64,000 bases of DNA from Vulcanimicrobiota bacterium (GTDB taxonomy: Bacteria; Vulcanimicrobiota; Vulcanimicrobiia; Vulcanimicrobiales; Vulcanimicrobiaceae): positions 279,674 to 343,673 of the forward strand of contig CAWCHS010000004.1 of NCBI GenBank assembly GCA_963795405.1, read 5' to 3'. The number at the start of each line of letters is the position of its first letter. Position 1 is the stretch's first letter. Below are positions 43,241 through 50,071 of the stretch, in pieces. The notes under the pieces are model-generated. The model made no database searches, had not been told where the DNA came from, and saw only the letters and a program-made list of their open reading frames with translations. Position numbers and translations under genes: made by a program.

Positions 43241-43960
43241 GTGATCGCAGCCGACGTTCAGTTCCGCACGGCCGCCAACGCCGCCGCCGCGGCGTTCGCG
43301 CAAACCCCGCCGTACCTCGTCTACCGCACGCACGTCGCGATCGACCTGCCCGCGCTGAACCGGCACAAGGTGATCGACCGCGAGGTCGAGACCCGGACGC
43401 GCGACGACTTCGCGCTGCTCCACGATCTGCCGAACGGCGGGCGGCAGTACGCGCACAGCTTTCCGCTCATCCCCAGCTTCGATGCGATCTCGTACTTCCG
43501 GTTCCAGTTCAACGGTTCGCAGCGCGACTCGCTGAGCTACGTGAAGGAGATCCAGCCGATCACCTTCACCGAGAACGAGGTCTCGCACGCCGACGTCGTC
43601 GTGAAGATGCTGCGCTACTACCGCGCGTCCTACGCGCCCGACTCGACCGACGCGGTGGCGCACATCCTGATGGAACCGCTCCCGACGCTGACCCGCGGGA
43701 ACGAATCCGACTTCTACCTGCACGACGTCTACGTCGACACGGCGACGAACCTGCCGACGCGCGTGGCCTACGAAGGTCCGTCGGCCTCGTTCAGCTGCGA
43801 CTACGTCGTCGTCGGCGGGCACTGGCTGGTGCAGCACGCGACGTACCGCCAGACGTTCTTCGGCCCGCTGCACATCGGCCGCGTCACGGCGACGGCCGAG
43901 GCGACGAACTCCGATTTCAGCTTTCCGGCGGCGCCGAGCGACCCGAAGCTCGCGCTGTGA
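43241..43960 (+). CDS. Hypothetical beta-rich exported-type protein; 5' end possibly frameshifted
   Basis: Clean high-GC3 ORF; a signal-peptide-like frame from ATG 43194 is offset by one base. Confidence 0.65.
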   Translation: MIAADVQFRTAANAAAAAFAQTPPYLVYRTHVAIDLPALNRHKVIDREVETRTRDDFALLHDLPNGGRQYAHSFPLIPSFDAISYFRFQFNGSQRDSLSYVKEIQPITFTENEVSHADVVVKMLRYYRASYAPDSTDAVAHILMEPLPTLTRGNESDFYLHDVYVDTATNLPTRVAYEGPSASFSCDYVVVGGHWLVQHATYRQTFFGPLHIGRVTATAEATNSDFSFPAAPSDPKLAL

Positions 43961-43963
43961 CGA

Positions 43964-43995
43964 CGGCGCGCCGTCCGGTCCGGAACGGCGCGCCG
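43964..43995. terminator. Hairpin between a convergent gene and tRNA-Ser
   Basis: 11-bp stem CGGCGCGCCGT/ACGGCGCGCCG; no U tract. Confidence 0.5.
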
Positions 43996-44001
43996 CGAAC
44001 G

Positions 44002-44092
44002 TGGCGGAGAGGGAGAGATTCGAACTCTCGAGACGCTATCAACGTCTGCCCGCTTTCGAGGCGGGTGCCTTCAACCACTCGACCACCTCTCC
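44002..44092 (-). tRNA. tRNA-Ser(CGA)
   Basis: Cloverleaf, CCCGC-CT CGA AA-GCGGG anticodon arm, long variable arm, encoded CCA. Confidence 0.96.
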
Positions 44093-44096
44093 GTGG

Positions 44097-44600
44097 TCAC
44101 CGCCGGGTTGCGAAGAATCCGCGCAGCTGGGCGGCGGCTTCGTCCGCGAGCACCCCGTCGACGACGTCGACCCGATGGTTCACGGCGGCCGATCCGAGTA
44201 TATCGATGACCGACCCCGCGGCCCCTCCCTTCGGGTCGCGGCAGCCGAAGACCAGGCGCTCGATCCGCGCCGCGGCGAGCGCGCCGGCGCACATGGCACA
44301 CGGCTCCTTCGTGACGTAGAGCGACCCGCCGATCCGCCAGCGGCCGAGCGCGCGCGCCGCCCCGCGAATCACCAGCATCTCGGCGTGCGCGGTCGGATCG
44401 GGGAGCCGTTCCTTGGCGTTCCACGCTTCGAAGACGCGGCCGTCGACGGCGAGCACCGCGCCGATCGGCACGTCGCCCGCTTCGGCCGCTCGCTCGGCCA
44501 GCGCGATCGCGCGGCGTACGTACGCGACGTCGTCGTCGCGAAAGGAAACTCGCTCCCGGCCCGGCTCGAACGGGCAACCTTCGCCTTCGGAGGGCGACAC
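44097..44600 (-). CDS. tadA: tRNA adenosine(34) deaminase; start uncertain (44600 is a GTG inside the tRNA)
   Basis: DVPIGAV, PTAHAEM, TKEPCAMCAGA, DPKGGA. Confidence 0.9.
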   Translation of the reverse strand: MSPSEGEGCPFEPGRERVSFRDDDVAYVRRAIALAERAAEAGDVPIGAVLAVDGRVFEAWNAKERLPDPTAHAEMLVIRGAARALGRWRIGGSLYVTKEPCAMCAGALAAARIERLVFGCRDPKGGAAGSVIDILGSAAVNHRVDVVDGVLADEAAAQLRGFFATRR

Positions 44601-44624
44601 TCTATCCAATTGAGCTACGGGAGC
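44551..44624 (-). tRNA. tRNA-Arg(CCG)
   Basis: GCTCCCG/CGGGAGC acceptor, TCGCC-CT CCG AA-GGCGA, TTCGAGC T-loop; no encoded CCA. Confidence 0.95.
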
Positions 44625-44625
44625 C

Positions 44626-44773
44626 TGCCGCCATCTCGCTGCGCTCGATGGCGGTTCGGCATGACCCGCGTACAACGCGGGTCAGCCTTCCTTCGGTGTG
44701 TGCCTTCGGGCGGCGGGGTCTCGCTACCGCCTGCGGGCGCGGTGAGTTTGGGGTCGTCGCGGGCGCGGTGAGT
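44626..44773. repeat. Hairpin-rich spacer with a 15-bp direct repeat
   Basis: Stems 44628-44654, 44662-44684 and 44712-44731; GCGGGCGCGGTGAGT at 44733 and 44759. Confidence 0.7.
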
Positions 44774-44830
44774 CGGTCGTGGCGAGGCGCGGTGGGTTTG
44801 GTTGCGTGGCGAGTCGTGGTGCGCGTGGCG

Positions 44831-45088
44831 TTAGCGGCGGTCTTCGGTGGCGGCGGGGCCGGTTGGACCGGTGGGGCCGCTGCTCGGCATGTGCTTGAAG
44901 AGGTCCAGCTTGTGTTCGACGAGTCCCCGGTAGAATTTGCGCACGCAGTCGGGATGCCCGAAGAAGTACGTGCGCGCGTACGCCAGATCGTCCCCCGAGC
45001 TGTCCGGCACGTAGTGGCTGATTTCGATCTCCTCCATCTGCGCCCGGTCGACCGGGTGCGGGCAGAAATCGCAGGGGATCGTCGACAT
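44831..45088 (-). CDS. Small hypothetical protein with CxxC...HxxC
   Basis: GAGG SD; CDFC and HPDC; Gly/Pro tail. Confidence 0.65.
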   Translation of the reverse strand: MSTIPCDFCPHPVDRAQMEEIEISHYVPDSSGDDLAYARTYFFGHPDCVRKFYRGLVEHKLDLFKHMPSSGPTGPTGPAATEDRR

Positions 45089-45108
45089 GGTGTACCTCGA
45101 GAAATTCC

Positions 45109-45180
45109 TGACTCGGGTAGGATTTGAACCTACGACCTAGGGCTTATGAGTCCCCCGCTCTACCGCTGAGCTACCGAGCC
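45109..45180 (-). tRNA. tRNA with CAT anticodon (elongator Met or Ile2)
   Basis: GGCTCGG/CCGAGTC acceptor, CT CAT AA loop, TTCAAAT; G1-C72 pair so not an initiator; no CCA. Confidence 0.9.
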
Positions 45181-45290
45181 GTTGCCGTCCGTGCGTCGAA
45201 CGCACGTCGATTATCCAGAACACGTCAAGACCCTGCCGGGCTGCGTGCGTGCGGCAGGCCCCGGGCCGGGGGCTCCGCCAAGTGTACGGC

Positions 45291-46931
45291 ATGACGTTCC
45301 GGGTGTTTACCTCCCTGGCGGTCGCGGCGTTGCTCGCGAACGCTGCATCACCGCTTCCCTCGGCTGCTGCGCAGGACGACGCAGCCGCGGTCATGGCGCG
45401 ACACGCAGCCTACGTCGGCGCTCCGCAAGGCCTCGTGCTGCGCTATCGCTTTGAACGCGACGCCTCCGCGACGCCGCGGCCCTCGCCCTCGCCCGACGAA
45501 GCCGACATTCCCAAGAGCGGTCCGCCCGAGACGGTGACCTATCGGCGTGGCGCGCTCTTTCGCCAGCTCGGGTCGGGGAACGGGAACTCGACCGAGAGCG
45601 GCTTCACCGGACGCGCGTTCTGGGAGGCCGACGACAACGGCTACACCGTGCTCTTGCTGGAAGACCAGGGCCGTCGCGCGCTCACCGAAAACGCGCTCGA
45701 CAGCGATCAGCTCGCCGGCGCGACGCTGGAGTCGCGCGGAACGCGCACCGTGAACGGTATCCTCTGTGACATCGTGCGCGTCACGCCGCCGGCGGGCGTC
45801 ACCGCCGAGGTCGCCGTCGACCGCGCGACCGGCGGCTTCGTGAAGATCGTCTACGAACCCGACGACCGCTACGTGCACGACGACGAGACGATCGTCGGCT
45901 ACAAGGAGATCGCGCCCGGCGTTCGCGTCCCGGGCGCGTACAAGGCCGCCCACGGCGAATACAAGCTCGTCGACGGCACCGTGCGCGCGGTGACGAACGA
46001 CGAGCTCCGCGGCCCGGTGCCGACCGCGAAGTGGACGTTCGCCTCGACGGATGCGACGCCGATCGACGTCGTGACGCGCACGCCGGAGTTCGGGTTCATG
46101 CCGCCCGGCAAAGCGGTGCACGTGCACGCGACGATCAACGGAACGCCCGGAACCTTTCTGCTCGACTCCGGCGACGGCGCGGACATCCTGCTCTACAGCG
46201 CCTTCACCGACAAGCTCGCGAAGAAGCTCACGACGATCGGCCGCACCGGCTTCTCGGGGATCAACGGGCGCGGCGTCGCCGCGCGGCTCGAGCGCGTCGA
46301 CACGCTCCAAGTCGGGAAGAACACCCTTTCGAACGTCTCCGTCTCGGTCGCGAAGGGCGGCTTCGGCGCCGACATCGACGGGATTCTCGGCTTCGACTTC
46401 CTCGCCGGCGCGATCGTCGACGTGAACCTCGCCGAGAAGACGATTCGCATCCTCGACCCGAGCGTCTACGAGCCGACCGTCGTCAAAGGCGCCTACGCCT
46501 TTCCGATCAATCTGGCGAGCCGCCAGCCGGGGATCTCGCTCCGCGTCGGCGACGCCGAGACGAAAGCGGTCTTCGACAGCGGCGACTCCTTTCTGGTCTC
46601 GCTCAGCGACGATCTCCTGCGCAGCCGGCGCGTCGTCGCGCTCACCGACACCACGCGCATTGCGGACCCGTATTCCGGCGCGCCGATGGAGTTCCAGTAC
46701 AACCTCTTCTTCGTCGGCGTCGACGGGCCGACAAGCGTTCCGGCGAAGTGCTCCCGCATCAACCAGCTCGAGGTCGGTCCGTACCGCTACGAGCGCGTCG
46801 AGACGTGCTTCGCGCCGGCCGAGGTGTTCGGAAAGGACGGCGGCCTGATCGGGATGGACTTCCTCCAGCACTTCAACTGGACGTTCGACTACGTCGACTC
46901 GAAGCTCGTGCTCACGCCGAACGGGCTCTGA
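45291..46931 (+). CDS. Secreted protein with two retropepsin-like aspartyl protease domains
   Basis: Signal peptide; FLLDSG and AVFDSG; DGILGFDF and GLIGMDFL. Confidence 0.78.
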   Translation: MTFRVFTSLAVAALLANAASPLPSAAAQDDAAAVMARHAAYVGAPQGLVLRYRFERDASATPRPSPSPDEADIPKSGPPETVTYRRGALFRQLGSGNGNSTESGFTGRAFWEADDNGYTVLLLEDQGRRALTENALDSDQLAGATLESRGTRTVNGILCDIVRVTPPAGVTAEVAVDRATGGFVKIVYEPDDRYVHDDETIVGYKEIAPGVRVPGAYKAAHGEYKLVDGTVRAVTNDELRGPVPTAKWTFASTDATPIDVVTRTPEFGFMPPGKAVHVHATINGTPGTFLLDSGDGADILLYSAFTDKLAKKLTTIGRTGFSGINGRGVAARLERVDTLQVGKNTLSNVSVSVAKGGFGADIDGILGFDFLAGAIVDVNLAEKTIRILDPSVYEPTVVKGAYAFPINLASRQPGISLRVGDAETKAVFDSGDSFLVSLSDDLLRSRRVVALTDTTRIADPYSGAPMEFQYNLFFVGVDGPTSVPAKCSRINQLEVGPYRYERVETCFAPAEVFGKDGGLIGMDFLQHFNWTFDYVDSKLVLTPNGL

Positions 46932-46964
46932 TCCCTCCCCAGACCGCTGTTCGCTAGGAGATTG

Positions 46965-48479
46965 ATGATGAAAACGAGCGCCCGGGGTGCGCTCGCGGTC
47001 GCGGCGATGCTGCTCGCCGCGACCGCCGTCCCCGCCCATGCCGACGACGCGCGGGCGCTGCTCGCCAAGCACGCGGCGTACGTCGGCTGGCAAGCCGGCG
47101 ACGGCACCGTGACGAGCCTGCGCGAATCGGGCGCGGTCACGCTCGACGGAAAGGTTCGCGAAACGATCGAGTCCGTGCATCGCGGGTTCGTCTACCGCGA
47201 GCGCTACGGCGCCTTCCAGGAAGGTTTCACCGGCCGCGTGCTCTGGACGTCGAACGCGAACGGCTTCACCGTGCGCAGCGTCGGCGCGCCGGCGCAATAC
47301 ACGGCGACCTATCAGTCGCTCTTCGGCGAGGCGCTCGACGGCGCGCCCGCGACGGTTCTCCGCAGCGAGGAGCTGAGCGGGACGCCCGTGACCTGGGTGC
47401 ACCTGCAGCCGCAGGTCGGCGTCGCCGCCGACGTCGCGATCGATCCCGCCACCGGCGCGTTCAAGCGCGTCGTTCTCGATCCCGGCGGGAAATACGAGAC
47501 GACGATCGACGTGCTGAGCTACGCCGAGATCAGCGGCGGGAAGCGGGTGATCTCGTCCTGGCGGTACGGCGCCGGCCACTCGGTCTGGGCGTACACCGAG
47601 ATCAAGGCGAACGTTCCGGTCTCCGACGCAGAGCTGCACCCGCCGGCGCAGCGCGCGAAGTGGACGTTCGATCCCGCGAACACGCCGATCCCGGTCGAGC
47701 TGACCGAGCACCGCATCCTGATCGACGCGACCATCAACGGCGTGAAGGGGCGCTTCATCTTCGACACCGGCGCCGACGGCATCGCGCTGACCGATACCTT
47801 CGCGCGCCGCGCCGGGGCGAAGCGGCTCGGCCAAACCGAGATCGAAGGGATCGGCGGAGGCGCGCGCGCCAACGTCTACAAGGTCGACACCGTCGCCTTC
47901 GGCGGCAGCGTGCTGCACGACGTCGTCATCGACACCGGGCTCGACGAACGCGGGCCGATGTTCCAGGACACGGCCGGCCTGATCGGCTTCGATCTGCTCG
48001 GCGGCGCGATCGTCGACATGGACCTCGACGCGAAGACGATGCGCATCATGGACCCGCAGAAGTTCGAGCCCGACAAGAGCAAAGGGATCACCGTTCCGGT
48101 CGACCTGACCACCGGGCAGCCCCGTGTCCCGATGACGGTCGGCGGGCGGGTCGCCGTGCTCGCGACGCTCGACAGCGGCAACCCGGCCTGGGTGATGTTC
48201 AGCAAGTCGCTGCAGTCACGCGACCATGTCAGCTTCTTCGTCGACCCGACGGCGCTCGTGCAAGAGATCCAGTTCTACGGCGTCAACGGCAGCGAGATCG
48301 ACCGCTGCGGCAAGCTGCAAAGCTTGAACCTCGGCCCGATCTCCTACGCCCCGGTGCCGGCCTGCGCATCCGACTCGATGGCGCGCAGCGAAGTCCTCGT
48401 CGGCCTCGAGTTCATCCGCGCCTTCAACACCGTCTTCGACTATCCCGACGGCTACCTGGTGATGACGCCGCGCAAATAG
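46965..48479 (+). CDS. Secreted protein with two retropepsin-like aspartyl protease domains
   Basis: AGGAG SD; signal peptide; FIFDTG and ATLDSG; GLIGFDLL. Confidence 0.8.
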   Translation: MMKTSARGALAVAAMLLAATAVPAHADDARALLAKHAAYVGWQAGDGTVTSLRESGAVTLDGKVRETIESVHRGFVYRERYGAFQEGFTGRVLWTSNANGFTVRSVGAPAQYTATYQSLFGEALDGAPATVLRSEELSGTPVTWVHLQPQVGVAADVAIDPATGAFKRVVLDPGGKYETTIDVLSYAEISGGKRVISSWRYGAGHSVWAYTEIKANVPVSDAELHPPAQRAKWTFDPANTPIPVELTEHRILIDATINGVKGRFIFDTGADGIALTDTFARRAGAKRLGQTEIEGIGGGARANVYKVDTVAFGGSVLHDVVIDTGLDERGPMFQDTAGLIGFDLLGGAIVDMDLDAKTMRIMDPQKFEPDKSKGITVPVDLTTGQPRVPMTVGGRVAVLATLDSGNPAWVMFSKSLQSRDHVSFFVDPTALVQEIQFYGVNGSEIDRCGKLQSLNLGPISYAPVPACASDSMARSEVLVGLEFIRAFNTVFDYPDGYLVMTPRK

Positions 48480-48492
48480 CGCAGCGGCGTCG

Positions 48493-49839
48493 CTAGGGAC
48501 CGACGTCCCGAAGGATCTTCTTCGCGATGACCGCGGCCGGCGTCGTGCTGCCCTGCACGCCCAGGTTCGTCATGACGATCACGCCGACGCCGTCGGCCGT
48601 CCCGGGGTTGACCAAACCGATCCAGGCGGTGAAGCCTCCGGTCGCCCCGTCTTTCCAGGTGACCGTCTCGCCGTTGAACGCATCGGTCGCCCACGCGAGG
48701 TGCTGATCGTCGGTCCCGTTGTTACCGGTGCTCACCAGCGTGGTCATCTTCTCGGCCTGCTTCATCGCCGCGTTGATGTCCGCGTTGCTGCTCTGCAGCA
48801 GCGCGGCGTTGAGGTACGTCAGCATGTCGCCGCTCTTCGAGCGCAGCGTCCCGCCGCCGGGCCACGCGTTCACCGGCCAGTGATAGGTCGCGGTCGACGG
48901 CGCGCTGTAGCCGGTGGCGTAGTTCGAGCCGTAGTACGAGGTGCGCGAGACGTCGAGCGTCGAGGGCATGTCGAGCGGCACGAGCACCAGATGGTAGGTG
49001 AGCGTGAAGTAGTCGGTGTCCAGGAAGCCGGCCAGCCAGTCGCCGAGGATCCCGTATCCGATGTCCGAGTAGTCGTAGTACGAGCCGATCTTCTCGCTGC
49101 TGGGCGCGACGTACGTCTCGACGTAGTTGATGAGCCGCTGCGCCGGATAGCACGGTCGCAGGTAGGTCGGGAGCGTCGGCCCGCCCGTCGGGTACGGGTT
49201 CGGCGGCAGATCGGGGAGCGTCGAGGCGTGATCCGCAAGATCGCGCAGGTTCATCTCTTTGAACGTCGTGCTGTACCGCGAGGTGGGGACCGGCGTCGCG
49301 GCGGCGAGCGTCGGACACGCATTGCCGTTCGCGTCGGTCGTCGCCGGCGCGGGAACTTTGTACGCGGCGAGATGGCCGTCGTCGAGCGGCTCGGTCGGCG
49401 AGTACGTTCCCGCGTAGGTGCTGCTCGGGTCGATCGCCTTGTCCAGCGACGGGTACAGCAACGCCAGCTCGAGATCGAGCGCGGTGAACGTCTTCGTCAC
49501 CGACCCCAGTTCGAACGCCGTCGCCGAGCTGACGGCGACCTTCGTCGAACGATCCTGCACGCCGTAGAAGTACGTGTACGATTTCCCGTGATAGATGAAG
49601 TCGACCGCCGCGCCGGGGACACCGAGCGACTTCGACTCGTTCGTCGTGTCGGTCGCGATCTTGCCGGGGATCGGATCCGGCGTCGCGGTCGGCTTCGGCG
49701 TCGTCGTCGCCATCGTCCGCACCGCGCTCGTCGTGCGCTCGCCCGGCACCGGCGGCCCGACGGCGCCGTTCTGCGCGCATGCCGCGAAGAGCGCGGCGGC
49801 CGCCAATGCCGCGAGCATGCGAACGGAGCGAACGGTCAT
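48493..49839 (-). CDS. Serine hydrolase (beta-lactamase class C/PBP-like) lipoprotein
   Basis: Lipobox FAAC; FELGSVTK (SxxK), YSD, KDGATGGF. Confidence 0.82.
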   Translation of the reverse strand: MTVRSVRMLAALAAAALFAACAQNGAVGPPVPGERTTSAVRTMATTTPKPTATPDPIPGKIATDTTNESKSLGVPGAAVDFIYHGKSYTYFYGVQDRSTKVAVSSATAFELGSVTKTFTALDLELALLYPSLDKAIDPSSTYAGTYSPTEPLDDGHLAAYKVPAPATTDANGNACPTLAAATPVPTSRYSTTFKEMNLRDLADHASTLPDLPPNPYPTGGPTLPTYLRPCYPAQRLINYVETYVAPSSEKIGSYYDYSDIGYGILGDWLAGFLDTDYFTLTYHLVLVPLDMPSTLDVSRTSYYGSNYATGYSAPSTATYHWPVNAWPGGGTLRSKSGDMLTYLNAALLQSSNADINAAMKQAEKMTTLVSTGNNGTDDQHLAWATDAFNGETVTWKDGATGGFTAWIGLVNPGTADGVGVIVMTNLGVQGSTTPAAVIAKKILRDVGP

Positions 49840-49887
49840 GAACCACCTCGGTTGAGACGGGCGCAAGTCGGACCGATTTTCGCACCG

Positions 49888-49913
49888 AAAAGAAAAACCC
49901 CGCCGAAGCGGGG
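49888..49913 (-). terminator. Rho-independent terminator after the tRNA pair
   Basis: CCCCGC-TTCG-GCGGGG followed by TTTTTCTTTT on the minus strand. Confidence 0.85.
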
Positions 49914-49920
49914 GTGAAAC

Positions 49921-49994
49921 CGCGGTCGGAGGGACTCGAACCCCCAACCTACAAGTTCGTAGCCTGTTGCTCTATCCAATTGAGCTACGACCGC
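49921..49994 (-). tRNA. tRNA-Arg(ACG)
   Basis: GCGGTCG/CGACCGC acceptor, CT ACG AA loop; no CCA. Confidence 0.96.
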
Positions 49995-50071
49995 GTGCGC
50001 GCGCCGTTTGCGGCGGCGACCTCGTGGGATACGCCGCGTCGTACACGATCCCTTTTCGGATCGTCGGGCGC

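Follow-up and report, generated by a model that had tools for sequence, protein, structure and literature searches.

A tadA Gene without a Canonical Start Codon at Its Junction with tRNA-Arg(CCG) in Vulcanimicrobiota, and a Possible Start inside the tRNA

In a soil bacterium of the Vulcanimicrobiota, the gene tadA follows the gene for tRNA-Arg(CCG) directly on the minus strand, and no usable canonical start codon stands between the two. We studied this junction in a stretch of 64,000 nucleotides (nt), hereafter the window, which spans positions 279,674 to 343,673 of the forward strand of contig CAWCHS010000004.1 (assembly GCA_963795405.1). Essential, universally conserved enzymes seldom lack a usable canonical start; that an entire genus is fixed for this state, and that it recurs in related genera, suggests a working solution rather than an accident. 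That the observation is real and genus-wide, with coding constraint reaching up to the tRNA, is well supported by comparison of relatives. As to mechanism, the best-supported reading, to which we assign a probability of roughly 0.4, is that translation starts at UUG 44609 or GUG 44600 within the unprocessed pre-tRNA and competes with maturation of the tRNA 3' end. A leaderless message released by tRNA processing ranks second and is unlikely, and a start inside the enzyme body ranks third and is improbable.

TadA and the tRNA That Precedes It

The features at the junction are as follows.

44551-44624, minus strand: tRNA-Arg(CCG), 74 nt, CCA not encoded (ARAGORN, Rfam, and frame analysis)
44607-44609, minus strand: in-frame TTG at tRNA positions 16-18 (D-loop), proposed main initiation codon
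44598-44600, minus strand: in-frame GTG at tRNA positions 25-27, alternative candidate initiation codon
44532-44550, minus strand: junction spacer, A 44550 and then GTT TCC TTT CGC GAC GAC (from the sequence and a near-cognate scan)
44100-44531, minus strand: conserved TadA body, with the invariant Asp at 44529-44531, helix 1 YVRRAIALAERA, HAE from 44387, PCAMC, and the C-terminal helix
44097-44099, minus strand: tadA stop codon TGA, 4 nt before tRNA-Ser(CGA)

The deaminase matches the Pfam families MafB19-deam (PF14437, 6e-30) and dCMP_cyt_deam_1 (PF00383, 2e-22), and residues 47-192 of its 192-amino-acid (aa) open reading frame (ORF) match the TadA chains 7cph, 1z3a, and 2b3j of the PDB at E-values of 3e-39 to 2e-36. 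The HAEM that begins at 44387 and the downstream EPCAMC align with the H-A-E and P-C-x-x-C motifs of solved TadA structures. The protein is TadA by fold and motifs, and A34-to-I34 activity is predicted for it. The N-termini of solved TadA proteins fall at residues 40-46 of the ORF, which is exactly the 3' end of the tRNA. This is the single clear TadA in the genome, the second match (E 7e-8) lying in a 502-aa open frame of a different type, and its substrate, tRNA-Arg(ACG), is encoded at 49920-49995 by the sole copy in the genome. The TadA body is intact, with 77-91% identity within the genus, and pairwise differences in its core of 0.085, 0.11, and 0.34 at codon positions 1, 2, and 3 indicate purifying selection.

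The tRNA is equally well formed. It matches Rfam RF00005 at 62.7 bits, against a threshold of 29, with full coverage of the model; ARAGORN assigns the anticodon CCG; and the D-loop is AAUUGGAUAG, with A20 present. It is a single-copy gene among 62 tRNA calls in a genome estimated to be 96% complete, and its sequence is nearly invariant across 25 genomes of the genus.

A reading made from the window's letters alone (the sequence-only reading) had proposed that the tadA frame runs through the tRNA, and this was borne out: the frame is open from a TGA at 44682-44684 across the whole tRNA and into tadA. The junction reads cgg gag cGa / GTT TCC TTT CGC GAC GAC GAC GTC GCG TAC GTA CGC CGC GCG ATC, in which the capital G of cGa is the tRNA discriminator, 44551. 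The two canonical starts that it had placed within the tRNA, GTG 44600 and TTG 44609 (D-arm), are present in frame. The ATG that it placed upstream, at 44675, is in fact a TTG, and a nearby ATG at 44662 is out of frame. Its statement that no ATG, GTG, or TTG occurs between the tRNA and HAEM holds as far as helix 1 of TadA; beyond that, in-frame GTG codons at 44471 (GDVP) and 44456 (GAVL) precede HAEM. Both lie after helix 1, inside the conserved core GDVPIGAV, and so cannot give a complete TadA. The junction spacer itself carries a T-rich tRNA trailer motif and is free of canonical starts, of one-mismatch near-cognate codons, and of stops.

An open frame by itself is within chance expectation in GC-rich DNA. 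The other two spacer frames are also poor in stops, and the counts in the three frames (0, 0, and 6) are too weak alone to show coding. Phase 2, the phase of tadA, is the sole stop-free frame of the window's tRNA, and in this frame tRNA positions 25-69 encode the peptide VSPSEGEGCPFEPGR, identical in most of the genus. What goes beyond chance is, on the comparative evidence, the conservation of phase in relatives rather than the open frame per se.

Relatives with and without a Start Codon

Loci of tadA were taken from 130 genome stretches of the same class, 97 of which have tRNA-Arg(CCG) at most 300 nt upstream; the unpublished genomes G036, G131, and G175 enter tallies only, and no conclusion draws on their loci. 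The relatives are nonindependent, and the branches of the TadA tree are weakly resolved. An Asp four residues ahead of the hydrophobic position in the helix-1 motif D-x-x-x-[MLIV]-R-R-A is invariant in the 97 proteins, and this residue served to sort the loci into those with a canonical ATG, GTG, or TTG after the tRNA (class I) and those with no canonical start before the invariant Asp (class II).

Class I comprises 62 of the 97 loci and, with an ATG as the start, prevails in most genera of the family. The start lies 1-5 codons before the Asp and 0-30 nt after the tRNA, as in CAT TGA TGC ATG ACT GAA GAC GAA or, in family f2, ATG GAG AGT GAC GAA. These genes occur in every phase relative to the tRNA (phase 1, n = 36; phase 0, n = 17; phase 2, n = 9), their leaders show indels of 1-2 nt between close relatives, and stops occupy 15 of 390 in-frame leader codons. 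Class II holds the remaining 35: all 25 loci of the window's genus, members of genera g40, g35, g50, g36, g17, and g47, and two loci with long spacers (L060 and L062; genera g51 and g13).

The sequence-only reading had allowed that relatives might carry an ATG or GTG just after the tRNA, which would make the missing start a local error. Within the genus this fails, since none of the 25 loci has such a start and 24 of them keep the frame through the tRNA open; the more distant genera do have an ATG there. Their ATG shows a start right after the tRNA to be the probable ancestral state. An assembly error that removed the start, or decay of tadA into a pseudogene, might be suspected in a metagenome-type assembly of nine contigs. 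However, the same state is found in 25 independent assemblies of the genus and in six more genera, the TadA body is intact under purifying selection, this is the genome's only clear TadA while its resident tRNA-Arg(ACG) needs one, and rpoB is unbroken in both assemblies with the oddest loci. We consider error and decay excluded, given the recurrence in the 25 assemblies and the selection on the body.

On the TadA tree, six changes of start state are most parsimonious, two of them forced by well-supported branches; the sister pairs L052/L073 and L097/L056 differ in state. As part of the reading in which translation starts in the tRNA, and as tentatively as that reading itself, we propose that the start-less state arose more than once in the phylum and became fixed in the whole genus.

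Two arrangements among the loci with a start also concern the tRNA end. In genus g38 (L038 and L039) the tadA ATG takes the discriminator A as its first base, and in L097 (genus g47) it takes A76 of an encoded CCA. In these loci tadA must be translated from RNA that retains the tRNA 3' end, which counts in favor of translation on unprocessed precursors. As the bases overlap, a simple cut cannot be expected to leave one transcript with its start codon intact and the tRNA 3' end complete as well. In genus g12 (L054, L071, L081, L088, and L103), the 9-nt leader and start read CAT TGA TGC ATG, or the same with TAA for TGA, so that a conserved in-frame stop stands one codon before the ATG, as if ending reading out of the tRNA.

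Reading-Frame Constraint up to the tRNA

Among class II loci with short spacers, 32 of 33 are in phase 2 and none has an in-frame stop in the spacer. The distances from discriminator to HAE are 155, 158, 161, 164, 170, 173, 176, 179, 182, and 185 nt, all 2 modulo 3, the exception being the genus member L019 (175 nt, phase 1); spacer lengths in the genus thus differ by multiples of three in 24 of 25 loci. Where CCA is encoded, in ten class II loci, the junction codon becomes CAT, CAC, or CAG, and phase 2 is still kept. The changes in spacer length are scattered through the genus on the TadA tree, and about ten or more independent indels kept the frame, which argues that the spacer is under reading-frame constraint up to the tRNA. 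The odd phase of L019 was considered as a possible assembly error, but rpoB is intact in that assembly and the locus is not dismissible; its frame, too, is open, with an in-frame TTG at tRNA position 48.

TTG at tRNA position 16 is found in 30 of the 32 phase-2 loci, with CTG in the other two (L018 and L056); an in-frame GTG at position 25 occurs in the window and in most, though not all, genus members, and a GTG at position 7 in three loci. No in-frame CTG, ATT, ATC, or ATA occurs in the spacer of 24 of the 35 class II loci, among them the window, and the UUG or GUG inside the tRNA is then the sole recognized start codon available. Across genera, short-spacer class II loci occur in 7 of 16 whose tRNA is open in phase 2 and in 0 of 12 whose tRNA is closed. 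When the tRNA is further required to hold an in-frame canonical start, the genus table becomes 6 and 4 versus 1 and 17 (Fisher p = 0.003, uncorrected for phylogeny).

The stretch from the invariant Asp to RRA has a coding-like pattern, with substitutions of 0.20, 0.23, and 0.36 by codon position. The spacer appears to behave as a free linker, the translation of which is suggested by its phase and its absence of stops.

These data bear on a start farther downstream, at ATC 44507 or CTG 44501 in the window and at a helix-1 ATG or GTG in the relatives that have one, which would leave the spacer untranslated and TadA without the beginning of helix 1. Most genus members do have an in-frame ATG at (Y)M-RRA or RRA-M in helix 1, in some of them Asp and Glu codons make a GAGG about 5 nt upstream of that ATG, and substitutions in the first six spacer codons do not follow codon position. 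A frame constraint up to the tRNA would be unexpected if translation began there, however, and neither the multiple-of-three rule nor the restriction to one phase is explained. Neither helix-1 position holds an ATG or GTG in the window, L017, or L056; these positions are M, V, L, or I in the 62 loci that place them beyond doubt inside the protein; the Asp four codons upstream never varies among 97 loci and is once spelled by a synonymous GAT; and every solved TadA has at least seven residues before the helix-1 position. We judge such an internal start improbable.

The same comparison disposes of GTA 44519, which the sequence-only reading had named as one non-canonical start. It occupies the helix-1 M/V/L/I position, internal in the 62 loci with canonical starts; the closest relative (91% identity) has the synonymous GTG; and the invariant Asp four codons upstream would stay untranslated. 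A start created there by TadA's own editing (GUA to GUI, in UACG at 44517-44522) was also considered and rejected: the site is not in a predicted loop, and the motif occurs in this species only, the closest relative having GTG.

A Possible Start within the Unprocessed tRNA

On the favored reading, TadA would be translated from precursors in which tRNA-Arg(CCG) is still uncut. A start at UUG 44609 would give a protein of about 170 aa and one at GUG 44600 a protein of about 167 aa, of which the first 20 or so residues would be encoded by the tRNA, with a free linker after them. A cut at the tRNA 3' end, probably of the RNase Z type because CCA is not encoded, would separate the start codon from the enzyme body, and each precursor would then yield TadA only before its maturation into tRNA, being either message or tRNA at a given moment. 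Initiation on a UUG with no Shine-Dalgarno sequence, in a folding tRNA, would be expected to be very weak, which would suit a low-abundance enzyme behind a strongly transcribed tRNA; and since the single-copy tRNA-Arg(CCG) must mature efficiently, translation dependent on the precursor would be weak by design. We speculate that TadA output would rise as pre-tRNA processing lags, tracking the unprocessed backlog. The suggestion that translation through the tRNA competes with its maturation had been made by the sequence-only reading; as a candidate mechanism, it is the best fit to the comparative data. The feedback loop that the same reading built on the CGN box, shared by tRNA-Arg(ACG) and tRNA-Arg(CCG), is speculative; what relatives do conserve is the placement of tadA in a tRNA cluster to which its substrate tRNA-Arg(ACG) also belongs.

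The evidence for a start in the tRNA is comparative throughout, and several observations weigh against it. The UUG at position 16 has no Shine-Dalgarno sequence upstream and sits in a fast-folding tRNA that needs efficient processing. In L056 position 16 is CTG and no canonical start exists anywhere in the frame; L018 also has CTG at 16, though it has the GTG at position 7. The long-spacer loci L060 and L062 have no canonical start despite a closed tRNA frame, so that non-canonical tadA starts (ATC or CTG) must exist in the family; together with L056 they show that some kind of non-canonical tadA initiation occurs in it. The first six spacer codons have substitutions of 0.52, 0.45, and 0.45 at codon positions 1, 2, and 3, with no third-position excess. 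Phase 2 is also the frame that begins one base past the mature 3' end, and the phase rule alone does not separate a start in the tRNA from a leaderless start. Finally, the nonindependence of the relatives and the poor resolution of their tree lessen what their agreement can say.

A Possible Leaderless Message, and tRNA Trailers

Processing could instead define the start. If RNase Z cut the tRNA after G73, a leaderless tadA message, A-GUU-UCC, would be freed, and ribosomes would start at the 5'-proximal codon, as in animal mitochondria: GUU 44549 in the window, and AUU, AUC, or AUA in some relatives. Several facts favor such punctuation by tRNAs. The tRNAs on either side of the gene are 1 nt and 4 nt away; phase 2 is exactly a 1-nt leader after N73, in loci without CCA, or after A76, in loci that encode it; and seven CCA-less class II loci have ATT, ATC, or ATA at the junction codon. 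In L042 the sequence ATC GAG matches the ATG GAG of family f2, and in L060 ATC ACT GAA aligns with ATG ACT GAA of L054.

Against it, the window and 23 other loci lack a one-mismatch near-cognate at the first codon, and the codons observed are arbitrary (GTT, GTC, TTT, GAT, GAG, CTT, CGT, GAC, CAT, and TGC); in the loci that encode CCA, the processed 5' end would present CUU, UUU, CGU, or GAC. No genus member has ATG or GTG at the junction codon, whereas leaderless initiation in mycobacteria is limited to ATG or GTG (PMC4633059). A leaderless start also leaves unexplained the link between start-less loci and an open tRNA frame.

The sequence around GTT 44549, moreover, has another explanation. 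A T-rich motif, (A/T)GTTTC or ATTTC, follows many tRNAs of the genome, after encoded CCA and CCA-less ends alike; the G/A-TTTC form is found after tRNAs both adjacent to coding sequence and not, and a C-G/A-T trailer follows tRNA-Arg(CCG) also where the spacer is clearly non-coding. As a general tRNA trailer, G/A-TTTC is no evidence of a start function. The sequence-only reading had offered GTT 44549 as a dedicated start, and this is not upheld: the codon is part of the trailer motif, it has two mismatches from ATG, and CCA-encoding relatives have CAT or CAC there in the same phase.

The genome has about ten well-formed tRNAs without an encoded CCA, including Arg(CCG), Arg(ACG), Arg(TCT), Arg(CCT), Phe, and Leu(CAA). 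The last of these, at 36184-36266 of contig C4 (outside the window), stands immediately before the ATG of a methyltransferase-like, Pro-rich protein of 379 aa, and the region is duplicated on contig C9 of the same assembly. In 22 genomes of the genus (loci L131 and L132-L160), the ATG or GTG of this gene is mostly at 0, +1, or +2 relative to the discriminator, with a distance of 12-110 nt in five of them; the ATG at 0 shares the discriminator A, and a canonical start is always present. For a leaderless tadA this second gene cuts both ways, as it indicates that starts at tRNA ends are used in this genus, yet it always retains a canonical start. Overall, we regard the leaderless start as unlikely, but as the nearest competitor to a start within the tRNA.

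Other ways of supplying a start to tadA were tried and set aside. The only GGGAG near the junction lies in the acceptor stem of the tRNA, on its 3' strand; were it to serve GTT as a Shine-Dalgarno sequence, the spacing would be 3 nt, and it is buried in the 7-bp stem and absent from the other start-less genera. Genome-wide, Shine-Dalgarno sequences show a modest enrichment at -14 to -8, which, with crude start calls, is not decisive. Folding suggested a pairing of tRNA leader and trailer that would hide the tadA 5' end, but the leader of relatives makes its own hairpin and the duplexes are not conserved. Removal of the tRNA as an "intron" that joins tadA to an upstream ATG fares no better, as the ATGs at -8 or -10 are not conserved and fall out of frame after removal of 74 nt, and L012 and L034 carry an in-frame TAG at -5.

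Comparison with Known Systems

A full-text literature search found no described tadA, or other bacterial gene, that starts inside a tRNA. In layout, the locus appears closest to the tRNA punctuation of animal mitochondria and to the mixed operons of Escherichia coli, from both of which it differs by having no start at the junction and a phase linked to the interior of the tRNA. Mitochondrial genes (Ojala-Montoya-Attardi; PMC3790967), like tadA, have tRNAs on both sides with spacers of 0-4 nt, no 5' leader, and no ribosome-binding site, with non-AUG first codons in some lineages, and excision of the tRNAs would set both ends of the message. Unlike them, tadA resides in a bacterium of otherwise ordinary gene structure; its first codon is usually not AUN, the window having GUU rather than a recognized start codon at the processed 5' end; and its frame is aligned with the inside of the tRNA, an indication that the unprocessed precursor is translated rather than the excised message. 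The E. coli mixed operons (thrU-tyrU-glyT-thrT-tufB; secG-leuU, PMC2241853) place tRNAs and a protein gene on one transcript, from which processing by RNase P or RNase E separates them, an arrangement that the tadA cluster may share, but their protein genes have a leader, a Shine-Dalgarno sequence, and an AUG well away from the tRNA, and tadA has none of these.

Two other systems offer partial parallels. Weak non-AUG starts (AUU in infC; leadered ATT and TTG in mycobacteria, PMC4633059) are, like the starts considered here, poor codons for low or controlled output, and ATC, ATT, or ATA do replace ATG at the homologous place in a few tadA relatives; those of the infC type, however, combine a Shine-Dalgarno sequence with a one-mismatch codon, and the window's spacer has neither. 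The tmRNA joins a tRNA structure and an open frame without an initiation codon on one molecule, a resemblance of layout only. Its 3' CCA is free and charged, and it resumes translation in trans on stalled ribosomes, whereas the 3' end of the tadA-linked tRNA runs into the frame and hence could not be charged.

If translation does start in the tRNA, this would be the first known example of an RNA segment that acts as a working tRNA and also encodes the beginning of a protein, and it would couple the supply of a tRNA-editing enzyme to tRNA processing by simple kinetics. Should the processed message start at GUU and other arbitrary codons, free-living bacteria would possess a mitochondrion-like choice of start, dictated by the 5' end. 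Either way, gene finders will mis-call tadA, truncating it or extending it upstream to an arbitrary codon. Given an invariant tRNA sequence, the single peptide VSPSEGEGCPFEPGR would be diagnostic for the whole genus.

The tRNA Cluster around tadA

The junction lies in a cluster of co-oriented tRNA and protein genes, the other features of which are the following.

45109-45180, minus strand: tRNA-Met(CAT), heading the cluster (ARAGORN; Rfam, 67.8 bits)
44831-45088, minus strand: gene for an 85-aa small protein with a CxxC...HPDC pattern, between tRNA-Met and tRNA-Arg(CCG) (ORF list)
44628-44654, minus strand: hairpin directly 5' of tRNA-Arg(CCG), with the loop GAGCGCAGCGA
44002-44092, minus strand: tRNA-Ser(CGA), abutting the tadA 3' end (ARAGORN and Rfam)

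The gene order tRNA-Met, small ORF, tRNA-Arg(CCG), tadA, tRNA-Ser(CGA) is conserved in relatives; tRNA-Met(CAT) is kept upstream of tRNA-Arg(CCG) class-wide, and tRNA-Ser(CGA) lies downstream of tadA in nearly all related loci. The close flanking of tadA, with 1 base between tRNA-Arg(CCG) and the tadA frame and 4 nt between the tadA stop and tRNA-Ser, is conserved as well. A scan of 43900-45400 found no sigma-70-like promoter or terminator on the minus strand from 45180 to 44002, a result that covers one promoter type and is uninformative for this phylum; the junctions of the cluster leave no room for a promoter or terminator.

Two hairpins precede tRNA-Arg(CCG). In that at 44628-44654 the stem sequence varies among genus members, yet pairing is kept and AGCGAG-type loop repeats are retained, and it may be a processing or protein-binding site. 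The second, at 44663-44683 on the minus strand, is a perfect 8-bp hairpin (GACCCGCG-TTGTA-CGCGGGTC) whose first arm includes the in-frame TGA bounding the tadA frame on its upstream side and whose loop includes TTG 44675; a TGA in frame at -59 is shared by many members of the genus.

The 85-aa ORF begins with an ATG 20 nt after tRNA-Met and contains the motifs CDFC...HPDC; no Pfam family matched it. Across 98 related loci its aa identity is about 85-96%, against about 60% for TadA, a far stronger conservation. It appears to be a very constrained small protein, always embedded in the tRNA cluster.

In many relatives tRNA-Ser(GCT) and tRNA-Arg(ACG), the TadA substrate, lie just upstream of the cluster, and in many all five tRNAs fall within 1-2.6 kb. 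In the window, plus-strand genes at 45181-49919 split tRNA-Met from tRNA-Arg(ACG) and tRNA-Ser(GCT); these genes include paralogous secreted retropepsin-like proteins.

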